The notes: generated by a model from the letters alone, not told the origin. A DNA stretch of 64,000 nt from Escherichia coli (GCF_041886205.1 NZ_CP169029.1), one strand, 5' to 3'; positions 1 to 10,659 are shown, counted from the first letter of the stretch. Numbers and translations: made by a program.

Positions 1-191
1 AAATGCAATGGAAAAGATGATATAGAGAGTGAAATAATCCAGATTATTACTATTGTTCATGCTACTAATGGCAATCCTGTCAAAACTTTCAAACAATTAT
101 AGCAAACAAAATAATGAACAATAGTAACAAGAGGCAACGAGCTAATTAGCTGTCTATAATTACACCGCACTATGGCCTTACTGATCGATTT

Positions 192-1715
192 TCACTCAAC
201 CACAACCTTCACCTTCGGTTTAGAAAGGATAATTTTGACCAGGTCGATGTATGTAACAGGTTTATAGAAATAATAACCCTGCTGAAATGTGATATTATTT
301 TGGTTCAGATAGTCAAGTTGTTCTTTCGTTTCGACACCTTCAGCGACGATACTGATCGAAAGTTTACGCGCCAGATCCAATACACAATCCAGAATTCGGG
401 TTGATTCTGGGTCTGCGTTTACGCGGCCAACGAAACTGTGATCAATTTTGATATAATCAATATGCAGGTCATGAAGATAAGAAAGCCCTGAGTAGCCAGT
501 ACCGAAATCATCCAGCGCGATGACAAAACCATTTTCATGCAGAATGTTCAACCGCTGAACCAGACTTTCATCAACATTCAATGGCTCACGCTCGGTGACT
601 TCCAGAACAAGGTTTAAATCGCGGCGGGTAAAACTGTCACGGAAATTTAAACACTCGTCGACAAACGTCGGCGAAATAATATGCGAAGCGCTAAAATTAA
701 TTCCAATATGAAAACCTTCCGGCAGTTTACTCGCGATAGCGTTCATCTGTCTGGCAACCTGATTCATCAGGCTTTGTGTAAGCGGAACGATTAATCCGGA
801 TTTTTCAGCAAGTGGAATAAATGCCGCGGGTGAAATATATCCACCGTGAGGTTGTTTCCAGCGGGCTAACACCTCAACTCCCCGCAATGTCCCTTCCCGA
901 CCATTTACCACAGGTTGGTAAAAAGGGACGATCTCCCCATTATTTATTGCCCGTCGCAGGATCTCTTCAGGCGTTGCGCTTTTATTGAAATACCTATCAA
1001 GCAGGAAAGCAGCGGCGCAGGCGATTAACAGAATAAATATCAAAATCCCAAAGCCTTTATCGATAAGTCTGTAGAAGCTAAAGAGTGGCGGCGGGTTAAA
1101 GATAATAGTGAAATGATATTTTGTGGAGTGAACCTTCTCGGTATAGGGATAATGTCCATTAAGTGTCATCACATCACCCGTAGGCCCAATAATGTCATCC
1201 GCCACGCGTAATACATACCTTACCCCTTTCAAGGGTACATTAAGCGCCCCACGAATATGCTGATCGCTTATCGTAACCAAAATGCGCGTATCTGCAAATT
1301 GGTTCTGATAGAGCAGGATAGGTAATCTATTAACGGTGTCGATTGCTGGAGCCAACAGTAAATTACTGTCCGGGACAACAGGAATACGAGACAACAGGAC
1401 CCGATTCCCAGGCAGGGATGTACACCAGACTATTCCCTGTTTGAGAATGATGATTGTGCGCAGGTGAGGTTTCAGAGCTGCTTCAGTGCCAAGCTGATAT
1501 TGCTCCTCGAGGTCGCATTCCTTCCCGGCAATGTTAACCGCTGTTTGAGTCGCCTGTGACGCTTCTTCAAGTATATGATTGATATTGTTGGCGGCATATC
1601 TCGCTCCCGACAGGTACTCTGCTTTTGCGGAATACCAGAGCTGGATGTTCAAAATAGCGACACCGGTTATAAATAAGCATATCGCAACGAGGATGGGTAT
1701 GAGTGTATTGCGCAT
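192..1715 (-). CDS. pdeG: CSS-motif EAL-domain c-di-GMP phosphodiesterase PdeG (YcgG); start taken at internal Met giving 507 aa
   Basis: 521-aa ORF on the track; N-terminal TM segment plus C-terminal EAL-like domain; synteny next to ymgC as in K-12. Confidence 0.8.
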   Translation of the reverse strand: MRNTLIPILVAICLFITGVAILNIQLWYSAKAEYLSGARYAANNINHILEEASQATQTAVNIAGKECDLEEQYQLGTEAALKPHLRTIIILKQGIVWCTSLPGNRVLLSRIPVVPDSNLLLAPAIDTVNRLPILLYQNQFADTRILVTISDQHIRGALNVPLKGVRYVLRVADDIIGPTGDVMTLNGHYPYTEKVHSTKYHFTIIFNPPPLFSFYRLIDKGFGILIFILLIACAAAFLLDRYFNKSATPEEILRRAINNGEIVPFYQPVVNGREGTLRGVEVLARWKQPHGGYISPAAFIPLAEKSGLIVPLTQSLMNQVARQMNAIASKLPEGFHIGINFSASHIISPTFVDECLNFRDSFTRRDLNLVLEVTEREPLNVDESLVQRLNILHENGFVIALDDFGTGYSGLSYLHDLHIDYIKIDHSFVGRVNADPESTRILDCVLDLARKLSISIVAEGVETKEQLDYLNQNNITFQQGYYFYKPVTYIDLVKIILSKPKVKVVVE

Positions 1716-1898
1716 TTGCTTGTCCCGGCCAAAGGGTTTAATACATGAAAATGCCATTCATTCGCTCGCGCTGGCATCTACAGAGAGCATGGTAGAGAGC
1801 ATAGGAAATATCCACGCCGAAGATAAAATTTTCTCCATCTTGATCTAACCCATTAATTATTGAGCATAATGTAGGCAGGATTAAATAAATTAGGTGGG

Positions 1899-1952
1899 AT
1901 ATCAGGCATCAAGAATGGAGAGCGAGAACTCTCCATTCTTGACACCTGATAT
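1899..1952. repeat. Long imperfect inverted repeat (about 25-bp arms; perfect 13-bp inner stem CAAGAATGGAGAG / CTCTCCATTCTTG around a 6-nt loop)
   Basis: Read directly from sequence; lies between ymgC stop and pdeG start. Confidence 0.7.
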
Positions 1953-2046
1953 TGCGGACATAATAAGAAAGCATAACGCCTGAAATGCTCACTTTGCATC
2001 AGCATGGTGATACAGCTGATGTTTATTCTAAAACCTTACTCAAGTT

Positions 2047-2295
2047 CTAAGAGAGCACGGATTCCCTGTCATTAATAATGATATCCGTTAGTGTAGTCTT
2101 ATGCATTTCAATGTACTGCAATATTTGCAGATAGAGATCAGAAAGAATCACACTGGTTTCATCTTTTAAACGCAAGCGTAAAGCCTGATCAATAATATGA
2201 CTATCAACATACCCATGCGTCATGAACACCTCCCTCTCGAGATTTTTAAACAAAGCACATTGAAAAATAAATCTCTCTGGGATTGAATTATTCAT
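2047..2295 (-). CDS. ymgC: YmgC, last gene of ycgZ-ymgA-ariR-ymgC operon
   Basis: 82-aa ORF; operon synteny. Confidence 0.75.
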   Translation of the reverse strand: MNNSIPERFIFQCALFKNLEREVFMTHGYVDSHIIDQALRLRLKDETSVILSDLYLQILQYIEMHKTTLTDIIINDRESVLS

Positions 2296-2407
2296 GTCAG
2301 CCTCGTAGAAATATTAACCCAATAAAATTATGCTGTGTATAGTCTAAAGCGACAGACAAAAATAAGATGAATGAGTTTTCTATAAACTTATACTTAATAA
2401 TTAGAAG

Positions 2408-2674
2408 TTACATATCATCAGCTGTGTATCGCAACACGATTTCCAGTGTTTTTCTAATCACATCAGCTTTGAGAATATCACTTGTTGTTTCCAGGGAGTG
2501 TATCAGACTTAAGATAATATTTTTATTATTAACATTATCGCCTGAAAGCATTAAATTGGTGACAGCCTGCCCTAACACAGCTGACTCTTCTTCTAACAAA
2601 TTACCCGAACTGCGAAAGTAACTTGCTAACGCTTTATCAGTTATTGCATTATGAATTGTAGTATCTTCAAGCAT
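2408..2674 (-). CDS. ariR: AriR (YmgB) biofilm/acid-resistance regulator
   Basis: 88-aa ORF; recognised sequence and synteny. Confidence 0.8.
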
Positions 2675-2702
2675 GGTAACCTCTCATCTTACTTATGAAA
2701 TT

Positions 2703-2975
2703 TTAATGTATTCTGTTTATTTTCTTACCATTGAACATACTTTTATTGTCAGCTGTCGCTGTTCTTCGGTTTAGCCCTCCTGAATCACTATTGCTAAAAT
2801 CACGAATTATGCTGTCGATTAAATCGCGTCGGAAAGCATCTTCCTCAGCCGATTTCATTACGAGTAATTGCTTAATAAGAGTCTGCAATGAAAAATTTAT
2901 CTTCATGCGCAGTATCTGGAGCACCGCCTGGCCAGTAATTTCATATTTTATACGTTCATTATCAGATGTCTTCAT
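2703..2975 (-). CDS. ymgA: YmgA, RcsB-connector family
   Basis: 90-aa ORF; synteny. Confidence 0.75.
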   Translation of the reverse strand: MKTSDNERIKYEITGQAVLQILRMKINFSLQTLIKQLLVMKSAEEDAFRRDLIDSIIRDFSNSDSGGLNRRTATADNKSMFNGKKINRIH

Positions 2976-3017
2976 AACGACTTCATAGCTAACCTGTTAA
3001 ATAATCAGGCTGTTGCA

Positions 3018-3248
3018 TTATTCAAAAAGCAACCCAATTAGTGCATTATAATGTTTCTGTTCCCCTGTCGCTTGTTCCAGTCGGCATAGAAGTTTGGCAC
3101 AAAGCGACTTTCGACTCAGATTACGTCCATCTTTCAAAATCTCAGTCACAATTTCCCCGAGAGTTTCCTGCTGAGTAGGCAAGTTAGCTTTTGCAAAGTA
3201 ACGAGTGATTGCTCCCGCAGAATCTAAAGTCACTGAATTTTGATGCAT
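3018..3248 (-). CDS. ycgZ: YcgZ, first gene of BluR-repressed operon
   Basis: 76-aa ORF beginning MHQNSVTLDSAGAITRYF; divergent from bluF. Confidence 0.8.
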   Translation of the reverse strand: MHQNSVTLDSAGAITRYFAKANLPTQQETLGEIVTEILKDGRNLSRKSLCAKLLCRLEQATGEQKHYNALIGLLFE

Positions 3249-3302
3249 GCTACGCCTCTGTTAAAAATGTTAATCAATGTTAAGTGAGGTAACAATAGCA
3301 AA

Positions 3303-3324
3303 CTTGTACGAAATATGTGTACAG
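3303..3324. promoter_or_regulatory. Candidate operator in ycgZ promoter region (TTGTAC-N9-GTACA partial palindrome)
   Basis: Seen in sequence about 55-75 bp upstream of ycgZ start; related to the TTGTACAA palindromes upstream of bluR. Confidence 0.3.
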
Positions 3325-3874
3325 AATGATAAATTAATTTTTTGCATTTAGTGCTAATACATACAAAACAACAAGTTATGATAAAAATTATTGCATCATT
3401 TAAATGACAACCTATACAAAAATTTTCGCCAACTCATCTTTAACTTTTTCCATTTTTTATCAATGTAAAGAAACAGTTATGTTTTGGTATTAAAAGAAAG
3501 ACACCGGAAGATATGTCTGTTACCGTCTTACTCTCACCTCTCCCATTACCCTGGACAGTTAATGCTTACCACCCTTATTTATCGTAGCCATATACGTGAC
3601 GACGAACCTGTCAAAAAAATCGAAGAAATGGTTTCGATAGCAAATCGCAGGAACATGCAGTGTGACGTAACAGGGATCTTACTGTTTAATGGTTCTCATT
3701 TTTTCCAGCTTCTGGAAGGTCCGGAAGAACAGGTTAAAATGATATATCGGGCTATATGTCAGGATCCACGGCACTATAATATTGTTGAACTGCTGTGCGA
3801 TTACGCGCCTGCTCGCCGTTTTGGCAAAGCGGGAATGGAATTATTTGATTTGCGCTTGCACGAGCGAGATGACG

Positions 3875-3883
3875 TTTTACAGG
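3875..3883. repeat. Left copy of 9-bp target-site duplication TTTTACAGG
   Basis: Identical 9-mer immediately flanks both IS ends. Confidence 0.9.
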
Positions 3884-4940
3884 GGCTTTGTTGAATAAAT
3901 CGAACTTTTGCTGAGTTGAAGGATCAGATCACGTATCTTCCCGACAACGCAGACCGTTCCGTGGCAAAGCAAAAGTTCAAAATCACCAACTGGCCCACCT
4001 ACAATAAAGCCCTCATCAACCGTGGCTCCATAACTTTCTGGCTGGATGATGAAGCTATTCAGGCCTGGTATGAGTCAGCAACACCTTCTTCACGAGGCAG
4101 ACCTCAGCGCTATTCTGACCTTGCCATCACGACTGTGCTGGTCATTAAACGCGTATTCAGGCTGACCCTGCGCGCTGCGCAGGGCTTTATTGATTCCATT
4201 TTTTCTCTGATGAACGTTCCGCTACGCTGCCCGGATTACAGCTGTGTCAGCAGGCGGGCAAAGTCGGTTAATGTCAGTTTCAAAACGCCCACCCGGGGTG
4301 AAATCGCACACCTGGTAATTGATTCCACCGGGCTGAAGGTCTTCGGTGAAGGCGAGTGGAAAGTCAAAAAGCATGGCCAGGAACGCCGCCGTATCTGGCG
4401 TAAGCTGCATCTCGCCGTTGACAGTAAAACACATGAAATCATCTGCGCTGACCTGTCGCTGAACAACGTTACGGACTCAGAGGCCTTCCCCGGGTTAATC
4501 CGGCAAACCCACCGGAAAATCAGGTCAGCCGCCGCCGATGGCGCTTACGATACCCGGCTATGTCACGATGAACTGCGGCGTAAGAAAATCAGCGCGCTTA
4601 TCCCTCCCCGAAAAGGTGCGGGTTACTGGCCCGGTGAATATGCAGACCGTAACCGTGCAGTGGCTAATCAGCGAATGACCGGGAGTAATGCGCGGTGGAA
4701 ATGGACAACAGATTACAACCGTCGCTCGATAGCGGAAACGGCGATGTACCGGGTAAAACAGCTGTTCGGGGGTTCACTGACGCTGCGTGACTACGATGGT
4801 CAGGTTGCAGAGGCTATGGCCCTGGTACGAGCGCTGAACAAAATGACGAAAGCAGGTATGCCTGAAAGCGTGCGTATTGCCTGAAAACACAACCCGCTAC
4901 GGGGGAGACTTACCCGAAATCTGATTTATTCAACAAAGCC
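3884..4940 (+). mobile_element. IS903-group insertion sequence (IS5 family), 1057 bp, 18-bp terminal inverted repeats GGCTTTGTTGAATAAATC
   Basis: Terminal IRs read at 3884-3901 and 4923-4940 (reverse complement); single transposase ORF; 9-bp TSD. Confidence 0.9.
3961..4884 (+). CDS. IS903-type DDE transposase (307 aa from GTG start; track ORF starts at upstream ATG 3916)
   Basis: Protein VAKQKFKITNWPTYNKALINRGS... recognised as IS903/IS102-like transposase. Confidence 0.85.
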   Translation: MAKQKFKITNWPTYNKALINRGSITFWLDDEAIQAWYESATPSSRGRPQRYSDLAITTVLVIKRVFRLTLRAAQGFIDSIFSLMNVPLRCPDYSCVSRRAKSVNVSFKTPTRGEIAHLVIDSTGLKVFGEGEWKVKKHGQERRRIWRKLHLAVDSKTHEIICADLSLNNVTDSEAFPGLIRQTHRKIRSAAADGAYDTRLCHDELRRKKISALIPPRKGAGYWPGEYADRNRAVANQRMTGSNARWKWTTDYNRRSIAETAMYRVKQLFGGSLTLRDYDGQVAEAMALVRALNKMTKAGMPESVRIA

Positions 4941-4949
4941 TTTTACAGG
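4941..4949. repeat. Right copy of 9-bp target-site duplication TTTTACAGG
   Basis: Seen in sequence. Confidence 0.9.
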
Positions 4950-5961
4950 CCGTATTCGACAAAGGCACATCAAAATTTCAGCTAACTTATGATGACAGAG
5001 CGCTACAATTTTTTCGTACTTTTGTCCTTGCAACCGAACAATCAACCTATTTCGAGATCCCTGCCGAAGATTCCTGGCTTTTTATCGCTGACGGATCTGA
5101 TAAAGAACTTGATTTCTATACCCTTTCACCAAATATAAACGACCGCTTTGCCTTTCATCCAATTGTCGATCCCTTATCGCGGCGGATAATCGCTTTTGAA
5201 GCCATTGTGCAAAAAAATGAAGATAGCCCATCAGCTATAGCGGTTGGGCAGCGTAAAGACGGGGAAATCTACAAAGCGGATCTCAAAAGTAAGGCGCTTG
5301 CATTCGCGATGGCACACGCACTTGAGCTCGGTGATAAAATGATTTCAATCAATCTATTACCTATGACCCTGGTTAACGAACCTGACGCAGTCTCTTTTTT
5401 ACTTAATGAAATAAAGGCCAATGCTCTGGTGCCTGAACAAATCATCGTTGAATTTACTGAAAGTGAAGTCATATCTCGGTTTGATGAGTTTGCCGAAGCG
5501 ATTAAATCGCTAAAGGCTGCTGGTATCAGTGTAGCAATTGATCATTTTGGCGCAGGTTTTGCTGGTTTGTTACTCCTGTCACGCTTCCAGCCTGACAGAA
5601 TTAAAATCAGTCAGGAATTGATTACCAATGTTCATAAAAGTGGGCCACGGCAGGCAATTATTCAGGCGATCATAAAATGCTGTACATCACTTGAAATTCA
5701 AGTCAGTGCTATGGGCGTGGCAACACCAGAAGAGTGGATGTGGCTTGAATCCGCAGGAATTGAGATGTTTCAGGGGGATCTGTTTGCTAAAGCTAAATTG
5801 AATGGTATCCCTTCCATAGCGTGGCCGGAGAAAAAATAATTTTCAGCACATTCTTTCACATGATTTCAGTAAATCATCGTGAAAATGAATACGTTATGTT
5901 TAAATTTAATCCACATTAAAAATAATGTTTCATCCAAATTAGCTGAAATCTTATTTATACT

Positions 5962-5989
5962 TTGTACAATTTTAGCGTATATTGTACAA
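5962..5989. promoter_or_regulatory. Two copies of the self-complementary octamer TTGTACAA spaced 20 bp start-to-start, upstream of bluR
   Basis: Read directly; 55-80 bp upstream of bluR start; position typical of an operator within a promoter. Confidence 0.35.
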
Positions 5990-6043
5990 AGTATTATTGG
6001 GTCGTGTACAGGCGACGGAGATTTATGACCGCAAGGAGGAATT

Positions 6044-6775
6044 GTGGCTTATTACAGCATTGGTGATGTTGCTGAACGTTGCGGGATTAATCCTGTCACT
6101 CTCCGGGCCTGGCAACGCCGCTACGGTTTGTTAAAACCACAGCGCAGTGAAGGCGGACACCGACTCTTTGATGAAGAAGACATACAACGTATCGAAGAGA
6201 TCAAGCGTTGGATAAGTAATGGCGTCCCTGTAGGCAAAGTTAAAGCATTACTGGAAACCACCAGCCAGGATACGGAAGATGACTGGAGCCGCCTGCAAGA
6301 AGAGATGATGTCAATTCTTCGTATGGCTAATCCTGCCAAACTACGCGCAAGAATTATTTCACTGGGTCGAGAGTACCCAGTAGATCAATTGATTAATCAT
6401 GTTTACCTTCCTGTTCGCCAGCGTCTCGTGCTTGATCACAACACCTCCCGCATTATGAGCAGTATGTTTGACGGCGCATTAATTGAATATGCAGCAGCCT
6501 CGCTTTTCGAAATGCGCCGTAAGCCCGGTAAAGAAGCCATTCTGATGGCGTGGAATGTTGAAGAGAGAGCACGATTGTGGCTGGAAGCATGGCGTTTATC
6601 ATTGTCAGGATGGCACATTTCTGTTCTTGCTGATCCCATTGAATCGCCGCGCCCGGAACTGTTCCCGACGCAAACATTGATTGTCTGGACAGGCATGGCA
6701 CCAACAAGAAGGCAAAACGAACTTTTACAACATTGGGGTGAGCAAGGTTATAAAGTCATCTTTCATGCCCCCTAA
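6044..6775 (+). CDS. bluR: MerR-family repressor BluR (YcgE)
   Basis: 243-aa ORF with N-terminal MerR HTH ([27 protein letters not shown]); synteny. Confidence 0.85.
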
Positions 6776-6994
6776 TTTCACCTTTATCCCGCCCCTTAGA
6801 CAGAATGTTATAATCTGAACCCACAACAGCGTTTGTACCGGAGCTGGTCCGTTGCAAAATGCTCACCGGACAATTCAGGTAATCCCCCTTTCACACTTTG
6901 TACATATCACAGCCAAAGGACAGACCAGATTGAAGTGGTAAAACCGATCGTGCACACTACGCAGTCTCACAACTAACAAGAGGTTATTATCCTG

Positions 6995-7399
6995 ATGGAT
7001 CAGGTCGTTGTTTTTCAAAAGATGTTTGAGCAAGTGAGAAAAGAGCAAAACTTCTCCTGGTTTTATTCAGAATTAAAACATCACCGTATTGCACATTACA
7101 TTTATTATCTGGCTACGGATAACATCAGAATTATTACTCACGATGACACGGTTTTGTTATTAAGAGGAACCAGAAACCTGTTAAAAGTTAGTACGACCAA
7201 GAACCCTGCTAAAATAAAAGAGGCCGCATTGCTTCATATTTGCGGAAAATCTACATTTCGGGAATACTGCTCAACACTGGCAGGCGCGGGCGTTTTCCGT
7301 TGGGTTACTGATGTTAATCATAACAAACGCAGTTACTACGCCATTGATAATACGCTTTTATATATTGAAGATGTAGAAAATAATAAACCATTAATCTAG
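6995..7399 (+). CDS. ycgX: YcgX (DUF1398 family) protein
   Basis: 134-aa ORF; synteny. Confidence 0.7.
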   Translation: MDQVVVFQKMFEQVRKEQNFSWFYSELKHHRIAHYIYYLATDNIRIITHDDTVLLLRGTRNLLKVSTTKNPAKIKEAALLHICGKSTFREYCSTLAGAGVFRWVTDVNHNKRSYYAIDNTLLYIEDVENNKPLI

Positions 7400-7605
7400 C
7401 TAAAGTTGGATGCTTAAGAAATGCTTCATAATTCAGTAAGGCATTAGCATAATGGGAATAAAAGTGCAGAGACCATTCCTATGGTTCTAATACTGCCTTT
7501 TTATTGCCGCCCATAGATGTTCAGTACACCAATACTATAAAATTGATATTGAAATGTACTCCCTTGCTTATTGATACATTATTTTATACGGTTAGTTTGC
7601 TTTTA

Positions 7606-7633
7606 AAAACAACGGGCGTGCTATACGCCTGTT
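7606..7633. repeat. Second copy (26/28 identical) of the icd terminator hairpin sequence
   Basis: AAAACAACGGGCGTGCTATACGCCTGTT versus AAAACAACGGGCGTGTTATACGCCCGTT at 8897-8924. Confidence 0.7.
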
Positions 7634-7778
7634 TCATGGCTTAACCCATATTAATTTTGCTTTATTTTTCATCGCGTTATAAGTTTTTAACCAGCAACGA
7701 GTTATCCTTTACTATAAAGTTCAATAGTTGAGACCTTACCCTCATGTCATGCGTATATTCATTATAATGCTCCTTAGA

Positions 7779-7805
7779 CAAAAAAAGCCAACCATGATGG
7801 TTGGC
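7779..7805 (-). terminator. Intrinsic-terminator-like hairpin (GCCAACCAT/ATGGTTGGC) followed by a U7 tract on the minus strand; no annotated minus-strand gene upstream
   Basis: Seen in sequence. Confidence 0.4.
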
Positions 7806-8024
7806 AAAGTGGCACAAAGTAGCATAAAGGCTATGCTTTAATTACAGAAGGTTCAGTCATTTAAATGTATATCGTTTTATCTAAACAGAACTAAAACGAA
7901 GTGAATGATTTCACTTTTCCACTAAATCTCATTTTGTTTAATCTCTGTTGAGATTCCTTGCTTTAAATTTTGTTTTATAAAACAGTAGCTTTATTTTTTA
8001 ATTGATTTTTAGGTAATATAAAAA

Positions 8025-8279
8025 ATGCAAAATCAAGAAATGAATATCCAAATTAAACTATACGCTTATTTAAATAAATATGACACTCGCCTTACAGAAG
8101 AAAAAATTGCGATTGATAAAGCTATTAGAGAATTACATTTTAGCAGCGAGCATGTTGATAACAAAAAAATAATACTGAAGTTACTTTCATTTTTATCATA
8201 TACAGATGATGTTGTTGAAAAAGACATTATCAGAAATACATTGGAAGTGGTTCTTCTTTTTACTTCCGATGATATTTAA
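8025..8279 (+). CDS. AriR/YmgB-family paralogue (84 aa)
   Basis: C-terminal half KIILKLLSFLSYTDDVVEKDIIRNTLEVVLLFTSDDI parallels Ari[39 protein letters not shown] in this same window. Confidence 0.6.
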   Translation: MQNQEMNIQIKLYAYLNKYDTRLTEEKIAIDKAIRELHFSSEHVDNKKIILKLLSFLSYTDDVVEKDIIRNTLEVVLLFTSDDI

Positions 8280-8522
8280 TTGGATTCACTAACTTTATTA
8301 TCAAAATTATTGTCCGAACACTACCTTTCTTACTTATGTTTAATAATAATCACTGCGAATGAGGGGCGCACAACTATATTTTTCTCACACCTGTGATGTA
8401 AAAACACGAGAAAATCCAAATAAAGAACAACATTTGCAATTCCCACCAGATGGATTGCATCACACTTTATTATTCAAAATATTTATCAGCATCATTAAAA
8501 GCCGAAGGATAAGACAAAACAA

Positions 8523-8846
8523 ATGAAGTGGATAGTAATTGACACGGTAATTCAACCTACATGTGGTATATCTTTTTCAGCCATATGGGGTGATATGAAA
8601 ATGATCATCTGGTATCAATCTACTATATTTCTCCCTCCTGGTAGTATATTTAAACCGGTTAAATCTGGTATTATCCTTAAAGATAAAGAATATCCTATTA
8701 CTATTTATAACATCGCACCATTCAACAAGGATTTATGGAGTCTACTCAAAAGCAATCAAGAGTGTCCTCCAGGAGAAAGCAAAATAACAAATAAATGTTT
8801 GCATAATAGTTGCATTATAAAAATATGCCCATATGGGCTCAAGTAA
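8523..8846 (+). CDS. iraM: IraM anti-adaptor protein (RpoS stabiliser)
   Basis: 107-aa [26 protein letters not shown]...; position next to icd. Confidence 0.8.
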
Positions 8847-8896
8847 AGGGTTTAATATAAATATGCTCGATATGCTATTAATAATACCTACATAAA

Positions 8897-8924
8897 TAAA
8901 ACAACGGGCGTGTTATACGCCCGT
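8897..8924 (-). terminator. icd intrinsic terminator (hairpin AACGGGCG...CGCCCGTT followed by a U-rich tract on minus strand)
   Basis: Seen in sequence 25 bp downstream of icd stop. Confidence 0.65.
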
Positions 8925-8948
8925 TGCAATATTAAACACATGTAGTGA

Positions 8949-10199
8949 TTACATGTTCTTGATGATCGCATCACCAAATTCTGAACATTTCAGCAGTTTA
9001 GCGCCTTCCATCAGACGTTCGAAGTCATAGGTTACGGTCTTGGCGTTGATTGCGCCTTCCATACCTTTAACAATCAGGTCTGCGGCTTCAATCCAGCCCA
9101 TGTGGCGCAGCATCATCTCAGCAGAGAGGATGATAGAGCCAGGGTTTACTTTGTCCTGACCGGCATATTTCGGCGCAGTACCGTGGGTGGCTTCAAACAG
9201 GGCGCATTCGTCACCGATGTTTGCGCCAGGGGCGATACCAATACCACCAACCTGCGCTGCCAGGGCGTCAGAAATGTAGTCACCGTTCAGGTTCATACAG
9301 GCGATAACATCATATTCAGCCGGACGCAGCAGGATCTGTTGCAGGAACGCATCAGCGATCACGTCTTTAATGACGATCTCTTTGCCGGTATTCGGGTTTT
9401 TAACTTTCAGCCACGGGCCGCCGTCGATCAGTTCTCCGCCAAACTCTTCACGCGCCAGCTGGTAGCCCCAGTCTTTAAACGCGCCTTCGGTGAACTTCAT
9501 GATGTTGCCTTTGTGCACCAGGGTCACAGAGTCACGATCGTTAGCAATTGCGTATTCGATCGCTGCACGAACCAGACGTTTGGTGCCTTCTTCCGAACAC
9601 GGCTTAATACCGATACCGCAATGTTCCGGGAAGCGAATTTTCTTCACGCCCATCTCTTCACGCAGGAATTTAATCACTTTCTCGGCGTCGGCAGAGTCAG
9701 CTTTCCATTCGATACCCGCATAAATGTCTTCCGAGTTTTCACGGAAGATAACCATATCGGTCAGTTCAGGGTGTTTAACCGGGCTTGGAGTGCCCTGATA
9801 GTAACGTACCGGACGCAGGCAGATGTAGAGATCCAGTTCCTGACGCAGGGCAACGTTGAGAGAACGAATACCGCCACCAACCGGAGTGGTCAGCGGGCCT
9901 TTAATGGCAACGCGATATTCACGAATCAGATCAAGGGTTTCAGCAGGCAGCCAGACATCCTGACCATAAACCTGTGTGGATTTTTCACCGGTGTAAATTT
10001 CCATCCAGGAGATTTTACGCTCGCCTTTATAGGCTTTCTCGACTGCAGCGTCGACCACTTTCAGCATGGCTGGGGTTACATCTACACCGATTCCATCACC
10101 TTCAATGTAAGGGATAATCGGATTTTCAGGAACGTTGAGTTTGCCGTTTTGCAGGGTGATCTTCTTGCCTTGTGCCGGAACAACTACTTTACTTTCCAT
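8949..10199 (-). CDS. icd: Isocitrate dehydrogenase (NADP), native C-terminus with no e14 junction
   Basis: 416-aa [41 protein letters not shown]... Confidence 0.97.
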
Positions 10200-10659
10200 T
10201 CACCTCTCCTTCGAGCGCTACTGGTTTGCTCGTCTGCCACCACGTTGCATATGCGTTTGCGTCCTGCGATACGGATGCTTTAGAGCAATTTTTGTTAATG
10301 ATTTGTAATTGGCTTGTCAATACTACCCTATTGTTTGCCGTCATGAAAGATGCGCGTTATTAGGCTATAATGCGGCAATTCATAATCTGTGAAAATACCA
10401 TGCAAAAAACTTCTTTTAGACCAAAGACAGTATTTTTCAGACCTTCAAATAAGGTATTAAATATCAATAATTTACACCAGATTTTAAGCAATAAAAAAAA
10501 CCACCAGAGATAACTAACAGGGTGCTATTTGGTCAAAATTTGACATTACTCGATTCAGCGACTAACTCACTTTGAGCACTATTGGGAAAATTATCAAAAG
10601 TCATGGTTGAAGCGACAAGCAACGAGTAAATTATGGCATCCACCCTTTTTGAGGTTCAC

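Follow-up and report, generated by a model that had tools for sequence, protein, structure and literature searches.

What becomes of the BluF–BluR circuit of Escherichia coli when a mobile element breaks bluF and leaves the other parts of the circuit whole? In K-12, BluF binds the repressor BluR and frees it from the ycgZ operator (PMC3509220), and ycgZ is induced ~46-fold at 25 °C relative to 37 °C in an essentially BluR-dependent manner (PMC5491885). The question is raised by a 64,000-nucleotide segment of an E. coli chromosome (GCF_041886205.1, NZ_CP169029.1; hereafter the window), in which bluF breaks off after nucleotide 322 (codon 108), where a complete copy of the insertion sequence (IS) IS903B lies, and in which bluR and the whole ycgZ-ymgA-ariR-ymgC operon are intact. 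An initial annotation had read this arrangement as a rewiring of the circuit, predicting either locked-in BluR repression with loss of light and cold responsiveness or, in the opposite sense, constitutive expression of the EAL half of BluF driven by the IS. Here we show that the first of these is the better supported and that the second finds little footing in the DNA. We consider it likely that IS903B was recently inserted by ordinary transposition, that bluF is null as a result, and that BluR stays on the ycgZ promoter (PycgZ). This would be a simple loss of function, for which ‘rewiring’ is too strong a word.

The interrupted gene spans window positions 3562-5839 and was delimited by alignment to K-12, whose bluF aligns to the left of the IS with nucleotides 1-322 (3562-3883, plus strand) and to its right with nucleotides 314-1212. 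The 9 nt that the two alignments share are TTTTACAGG, a perfect 9-bp target-site duplication that corresponds to K-12 bluF nucleotides 314-322 and stands at 3875-3883 on the left and at 4941-4949 on the right, followed by the 3′ fragment of bluF (nucleotides 323-1212; 4950-5839, plus strand). Between the two copies lie 1057 bp (3884-4940, plus strand) in the same orientation as bluF, bounded by perfect 18-bp inverted repeats, GGCTTTGTTGAATAAATC, at 3884-3901 (left) and 4923-4940 (right); these ends are the sole two matches to that sequence in the window, against a chance expectation of 0. The only open reading frame (ORF) of the element is an intact transposase gene of 322 codons (3916-4884) on the bluF strand. 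Its product matches the NCBIfam model NF033579 (IS5-family transposase) with 357 bits (cut-off, 140) and is identical to the transposase of annotated IS903B copies in strains HH194M and LR-64-1, and at the DNA level the element shares 99.9% identity with the annotated HH194M copy. The length of ~1057 bp, the 18-bp repeats, the 9-bp duplication (the length listed for IS903; PMC2577343, Table 1) and the single DDE transposase ORF are those of IS903B, of the IS903 group within the IS5 family. The IS in bluF is a genuine, complete IS903B, and the proposed interruption of bluF by an insertion, which almost certainly inactivates the gene, is borne out by its perfect repeats and duplication. The copy is probably still mobile. 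IS903 prefers the palindromic target WTTYA-N9-TRAAW (PMC2577343); the site in bluF scores 3 out of 10 against it (mean of bluF 19-mers, 3.85) and is not such a preferred target, but this is a preference rather than a requirement and leaves the classification of the element unaffected.

Could the insertion be an artefact of assembly, with bluF truly intact? IS elements often cause misassembly, and the exact IS junction was found in 0 of 5426 complete RefSeq E. coli genomes. Against this stand the perfect duplication, the exact expected length of the IS and the presence of both of its ends, as well as an independent public short-read contig (Logan, SRR28800585) that carries the identical left junction. 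That contig is 100% identical to window positions 1-3912 (3912 bp) and ends 29 bp into the IS, and since the left junction recurs there, misassembly is argued against; we regard an artefact as scarcely credible.

Transposition into a previously whole gene is also what a near relative of the strain indicates. In strain 6EVA (NZ_CP138428), bluF is intact and annotated. When the IS and one copy of the duplication are removed, window positions 1-10500 differ from 6EVA at 3 positions, none of them in bluF, and positions 14960-64000 are 99.986% identical; the comparison took in these two intervals. Excision of the IS in silico restores bluF as an open frame of 403 codons. Because the compared window outside the IS is thus ~99.98% identical to a genome with a whole bluF, we read the insertion as one recent lesion. 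A 6-kb query around the insertion, which matched thousands of E. coli genomes, found a single chromosomal place in 6EVA even though it contained the IS. The element probably came from elsewhere, perhaps from a plasmid. With its near-identical backbone and intact bluF, 6EVA is also a ready natural bluF+ control.

IS and duplication together put 1066 bp between the two halves of bluF, and the reading frame stops after three codons beyond residue 107, so that the window holds no single continuous 403-residue ORF joining the BLUF domain to the degenerate EAL domain with its EAIVQ motif. What remains on the 5′ side was overlooked in the initial annotation. The 5′ ORF runs three codons into the IS to a stop at 3893-3895 and encodes 110 residues, namely BluF 1-107 followed by Gly-Leu-Cys, behind an intact native promoter and start codon. 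In the reconstructed BluF, the Pfam BLUF domain (PF04940) occupies residues 2-92, so the whole of it lies inside this product. Exactly this 110-residue protein was gene-called on the Logan contig SRR28800585, the only contig on record that carries it. To place the break in structural terms, BluF was aligned with Klebsiella pneumoniae BlrP1 (PDB 3GFX), which it matches end to end (E = 1.5e-98) and ungapped over residues 1-150. BlrP1 residues 108-115 form the end of helix alpha3 and the alpha3–alpha4 loop, and residues 133-150 the BLUF–EAL linker (PMC3989770); by this alignment and numbering, the break falls at the C-terminal end of the capping helix alpha3. The cut at codon 108 is therefore predicted to leave the BLUF core with alpha3, and to remove alpha4, the linker and the whole EAL domain.

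A BLUF-only remnant of this kind, made from the cold-induced bluF promoter, might be partly active on BluR or on MlrA, in which case the circuit would be weakened or altered rather than off. The integrity of the promoter, start codon and domain speaks for this, as do the independent gene call and the solved structures of stand-alone BLUF domains of similar size (2byc, 2iyg, 1x0p). The two-hybrid data on isolated domains, in which the N-terminal and EAL domains both contribute to the contacts with BluR and MlrA (PMC3509220), point the same way. However, the purified N-terminal domain of BluF bound neither domain of BluR in vitro; EAL-domain mutations weaken the anti-repression exerted by BluF; and the acidic EAL domain, absent from the remnant, has been proposed to compete with operator DNA for BluR (all PMC3509220). 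The remnant is also without alpha4, the capping helix through which BlrP1 passes on the light signal (PMC3989770). On balance, a partly active remnant seems unlikely to us.

If the remnant does not stand in for BluF, does the 3′ half? Transcription out of or through the IS would, on the alternative put forward in the initial annotation, express the EAL half constitutively, antagonizing BluR without light control and derepressing the operon. Some of the premises hold: the IS and bluF share their orientation, no terminator was predicted between the transposase stop at 4884 and position 5207, so that RNA spanning the EAL region may well exist, and the isolated EAL domain interacts with BluR in the two-hybrid assay (PMC3509220). 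The sequence itself tells against the alternative. The Pfam match to the EAL domain (PF00563) covers residues 173-388 but enters the model at position 14, which puts the start of the domain near residue 160. Reading in the bluF frame, one meets a TGA at 4922-4924, within the right inverted repeat; it precludes fusion of any IS-encoded product to the EAL half, and between it and residue 193 none of ATG, GTG and TTG occurs in that frame. Canonical in-frame starts begin with a GTG at 5207, which encodes V194, the valine of the degenerate EAIVQ motif, and no Shine–Dalgarno-like sequence was seen in the 20 nt preceding it; later in-frame ATG codons are at residues 228, 238 and 246. A product starting at V194 would be without approximately the first 35 residues of the EAL domain, and its match to EAL profiles begins at about position 51 of the profile. 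The 3′ fragment thus almost certainly cannot encode a functional EAL domain.

Nor is an outward promoter in evidence. A consensus scan found no outward promoter-like site at the right end of the IS; the number of promoter-like sites in 3200-6100 (8, compared with 5.6 ± 2.3 by chance) is within chance; and a literature search found no outward promoter reported for E. coli IS903. We considered such a promoter as a candidate and rejected it: the scan was empty and the only statements that the literature search turned up concern IS903-group elements of Paracoccus. Neither of the two elements of IS-mediated activation, an outward promoter and a translatable downstream ORF, was found here, and we judge constitutive anti-repression by the EAL half to be most improbable.

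The other parts of the circuit, namely repressor, operator and target operon, are all intact. On comparison with K-12, the four ORFs of the operon, all on the minus strand, are full length: ycgZ (3018-3248, 76 residues), ymgA (2703-2975, 90 residues, with P68L relative to K-12), ariR, also called ymgB (2408-2674, 88 residues, the protein being identical to K-12 AriR), and ymgC, the last gene of the BluR-controlled operon (2047-2295, 82 residues, 100% nucleotide identity to K-12). YcgZ differs from that of K-12 by an in-frame deletion of 6 bp (two residues) and two substitutions, an allele shared with 6EVA, and it passes the NCBIfam YcgZ model with 113 bits (cut-off, 80). The sigma-S-type ycgZ promoter, with transcription starting near 3284, is intact and overlapped by a BluR operator (3305-3323; TGTAC at 3305-3309 and TGTACA at 3318-3323) that follows the described motif (PMC3509220) and is identical in sequence to that of K-12. 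Upstream of PycgZ, consensus scoring recovers the MarA box GCACTAAATGCAAAA (3340-3354), known with its position from earlier work (PMC6900184); it has one mismatch to the consensus GCAHWWWWTGYYAAA, and the K-12 box scores equally. Within the ycgZ–bluF spacer, the sole difference from 6EVA is a G at 3288 (A in 6EVA and K-12), 4 nt upstream of the ycgZ transcription start. A strain-specific compensatory promoter mutation was entertained here and rejected, this being a common allele: the 80 bp around 3288 are matched exactly by 2562 of 4914 E. coli records, about half.

The repressor gene is equally sound. The MerR-type bluR (6044-6775, plus strand) encodes an intact protein of 243 residues with T152A relative to K-12, and the earlier statement that bluR and its whole target operon are intact stands up to this comparison. 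In K-12, bluR has its own sigma-70 promoter, with transcription starting 54 nt upstream of the start codon, and reporter fusions and primer extension showed it to be transcribed independently of bluF, the two not forming one operon (PMC3509220). The corresponding promoter and leader lie at 5954-6043 (plus strand) in the window, where a promoter-like match at 5954-5983 (TTTATA, an 18-nt spacer and TATATT) fits the published start. These data bear on another way in which the insertion might act, namely mainly through bluR expression, whether by polarity or by read-through from bluF or IS promoters, with a consequent change in the amount of repressor. Indeed, bluR lies 204 bp downstream of bluF on the same strand, and no intrinsic terminator is predicted to separate it from the IS. 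Yet the promoter of bluR is its own, and the 204-bp bluF–bluR spacer that holds it is untouched by the IS, the promoter region being unchanged and the spacer as a whole showing three differences from K-12; moreover, extra BluR would merely reinforce the outcome expected from loss of bluF. A principal effect through bluR expression is thus, in our estimation, very unlikely.

The bluR promoter has a further feature. A palindrome, TTTGTACAA-N12-TTGTACAAA, and a third TGTACA, together at 5961-6010, overlap the promoter spacer, the −10 element and the transcription start; the same GTACA half-sites make up the BluR operator of PycgZ, and K-12 has them here as well. BluR, or MlrA, may accordingly regulate bluR itself, a possibility not mentioned in Tschowri et al. 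2012.

With the parts of the circuit in place, a mechanism can be proposed that draws, for its regulatory outcome, on published K-12 genetics. A transposition-competent IS903B would have landed in bluF at codon 108 and knocked the gene out. Without the full-length BluF anti-repressor, intact BluR would stay bound to the intact operator and ycgZ-ymgA-ariR-ymgC would stay repressed, with loss of blue-light induction and of most cold induction; residual expression would be the basal level driven by sigma-S and MarA. At low temperature, we would expect less YmgA and AriR input into Rcs and a reduction in YcgZ-dependent repression of ompF, and light-dependent inhibition of curli or biofilm should not occur. 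The last expectation agrees with the finding that ycgF deletion abolishes the effect of blue light on biofilm, curli and motility (PMC9604211).

Several considerations weigh against this reading or temper it. How strongly loss of bluF affects ycgZ is taken here from papers that cite the original reporter work. A bluR mutant keeps ~2-fold cold induction, so the temperature response does not run wholly through BluF and BluR (PMC5491885). Finally, because the isolated N-terminal domain contacted BluR in the two-hybrid assay (PMC3509220), the 110-residue remnant cannot be called inert from its sequence alone. Taken with the published circuit (PMC3509220, PMC5491885, PMC9604211), locked-in BluR repression nevertheless remains the best-supported reading. 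As to the accompanying prediction that light and cold responsiveness are both lost, the light part is what K-12 work leads one to expect, and loss of the cold response is likely; its completeness is not supported, given the residual induction in the bluR mutant and the intact sigma-S promoter and MarA box. For the Ymg/Rcs branch of biofilm control, the strain should accordingly be unable to sense blue light and, for the most part, cold.

Is such a loss exceptional? The initial annotation was made without knowledge that natural E. coli and Shigella often carry a broken bluF. A megablast query with nucleotides 1-1000 of bluF hit 4945 of 5426 complete genomes and gave nothing in the other 481. 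Of the genomes hit, 40 had a best place spanning under 80% of the query, and a further 42 split places were counted. Queried as a protein, the 110-residue remnant brought up many truncated N-terminal fragments of BluF (76-172 residues) in E. coli and Shigella, with tails derived from IS ends, frameshifts and deletions. Several recur on dozens of contigs, Shigella sonnei, S. flexneri and S. boydii being among the sources; many of these records are partial proteins cut at contig ends, and their count is not that of independent pseudogenes. Among insertions in bluF itself, IS903B lies at nucleotides 333-341, 19 bp from the site in the window and in the same orientation, in HH194M, ET151 and ET450; an IS903-like element lies at nucleotides 733-741 in TW10690; and IS1 interrupts the gene in 7_33_80A. 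Natural loss of bluF is recurrent, and the allele in the window is one more instance of it.

The neighbouring genes are struck as well. IS903-like elements lie in bluR in W409 and, as judged by matching span and annotation, in PSS-08-2; such bluR insertions predict the opposite outcome, derepression. IS903B is found in pdeG in LR-64-1 and, in 19SZHZ886Rt, in the ycgZ–bluF spacer between the divergent promoters, with the same junction matched in S163-2, DETEC-P61 and TUM9754. The 19SZHZ886Rt locus also has an IS3-family element between pdeG and ymgC, an IS1 between ymgC and ariR, and two IS1 copies ~70 bp upstream of bluR, a rearrangement far more drastic than that in the window. More generally, elements of the IS903 family and IS1 have entered the pdeG-ymg-bluF-bluR locus again and again in unrelated strains. 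Recurrent IS hits and mutations in this low-G+C bluF/bluR/ymg locus fit the view that the light and cold module is dispensable in many niches, which is a point of population genomics rather than of mechanism.

The positions within bluF invite a further question, whether the element returns to the same place for a reason. Three IS903-family insertions fall within bluF nucleotides 314-352, two of them 19 and 30 bp from the site in the window; an IS903-family element in P0001/L010 has a variant end sequence. Of the four IS903-family insertions known in bluF, three lie within 30 nt, which has P ~0.007 under a uniform model, but the insertions were collected with the junction query and the 110-residue protein query, both of which are biased to this neighbourhood, and with the unbiased hits only (two of three within 19 nt) a back-of-envelope estimate is ~0.09. 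We therefore set aside an IS903 target hot spot as possible but not established, given the biased searches and the below-average consensus score of the site. A bolder idea would be that the break at the end of alpha3 creates a stand-alone, cold-induced BLUF protein contacting BluR or MlrA, and that the IS903 clustering reflects selection, or a hot spot, for uncoupling BLUF from EAL; we hold this to be a long shot.

Two features of the IS903B copy concern transcription across it. A terminator-like, G+C-rich hairpin, CCCTGCGCGCTGCGCAGGG, with a T-rich tail lies at 4166-4184 (plus strand) inside the transposase gene and might limit read-through from outside promoters. At the left end, 21 nt separate the stop of the truncated bluF ORF from the annotated TTG start codon of the transposase, which lies on the same strand (3893-3916). 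Transcription from the cold-induced bluF promoter would enter the transposase gene, and, speculatively, transposase expression may rise at low temperature.

Around the circuit, the gene order is that of K-12 and 6EVA, with bluF beside bluR and divergent from the ycgZ-ymgABC genes, and the G+C content of the locus is low (~30-40%). On comparison with K-12 genes, pdeG occupies 192-1715 (minus strand) on the far side of ymgC, and ycgX, iraM and icd come after bluR. Rfam gave no match at the gathering threshold in window positions 1-10000. Between ycgX and iraM, in a stretch of ~30% G+C where K-12 has ymgL and ymgK, lies a gene for an 84-residue paralogue of the YmgB/AriR family (8025-8279, plus strand). 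It is 40% identical to AriR over 73 residues and is present in 10-11 of 5426 complete E. coli genomes, and its upstream region shows no obvious paired half-sites of the BluR type. The paralogue could supply AriR-like activity outside BluR control, blunting the loss of bluF. Further on, icd (8949-10199, minus strand) is intact and adjoins iraM, and the e14 prophage, by which this site is interrupted in K-12, is missing here and in 6EVA alike.

Set beside known systems, the lesion is of an already familiar kind. Loss of a BLUF sensor in nature has also been described for BlsA of multidrug-resistant Acinetobacter baumannii, likewise a host-associated bacterium, in which some strains lack it; the two cases differ in architecture, regulon and mechanism of loss (PMC9948694). 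The closest solved homologue, BlrP1 of K. pneumoniae, is an active, light-regulated phosphodiesterase of cyclic di-GMP, unlike E. coli BluF, whose EAL domain is degenerate (EAIVQ) and which acts by protein contact with BluR (PMC3509220). The other natural IS insertions share the locus with that in the window, and several share the element family, although their positions differ. Nearest of all are the engineered K-12 knock-outs, bluF::kan in MC4100 and W3110 (Tschowri et al. 2009, 2012) and the ycgF deletion in W1688 (PMC9604211), in which full-length BLUF-EAL protein is likewise lost with bluR and the operon intact. Unlike these, the allele in the window arose naturally, by IS903B at codon 108, leaving a BLUF-only ORF and an EAL remnant predicted to be untranslatable, and it sits in a wild strain whose YcgZ allele differs slightly and which has an additional AriR-like gene close by. 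It is an ordinary strain-specific knock-out in a well-studied circuit, without a new type of regulation and of little import beyond the strain. The phenotype to be expected is the same in both settings, with BluR unrelieved and no response to blue light, and under light and cold conditions the strain should therefore resemble a K-12 bluF knock-out.

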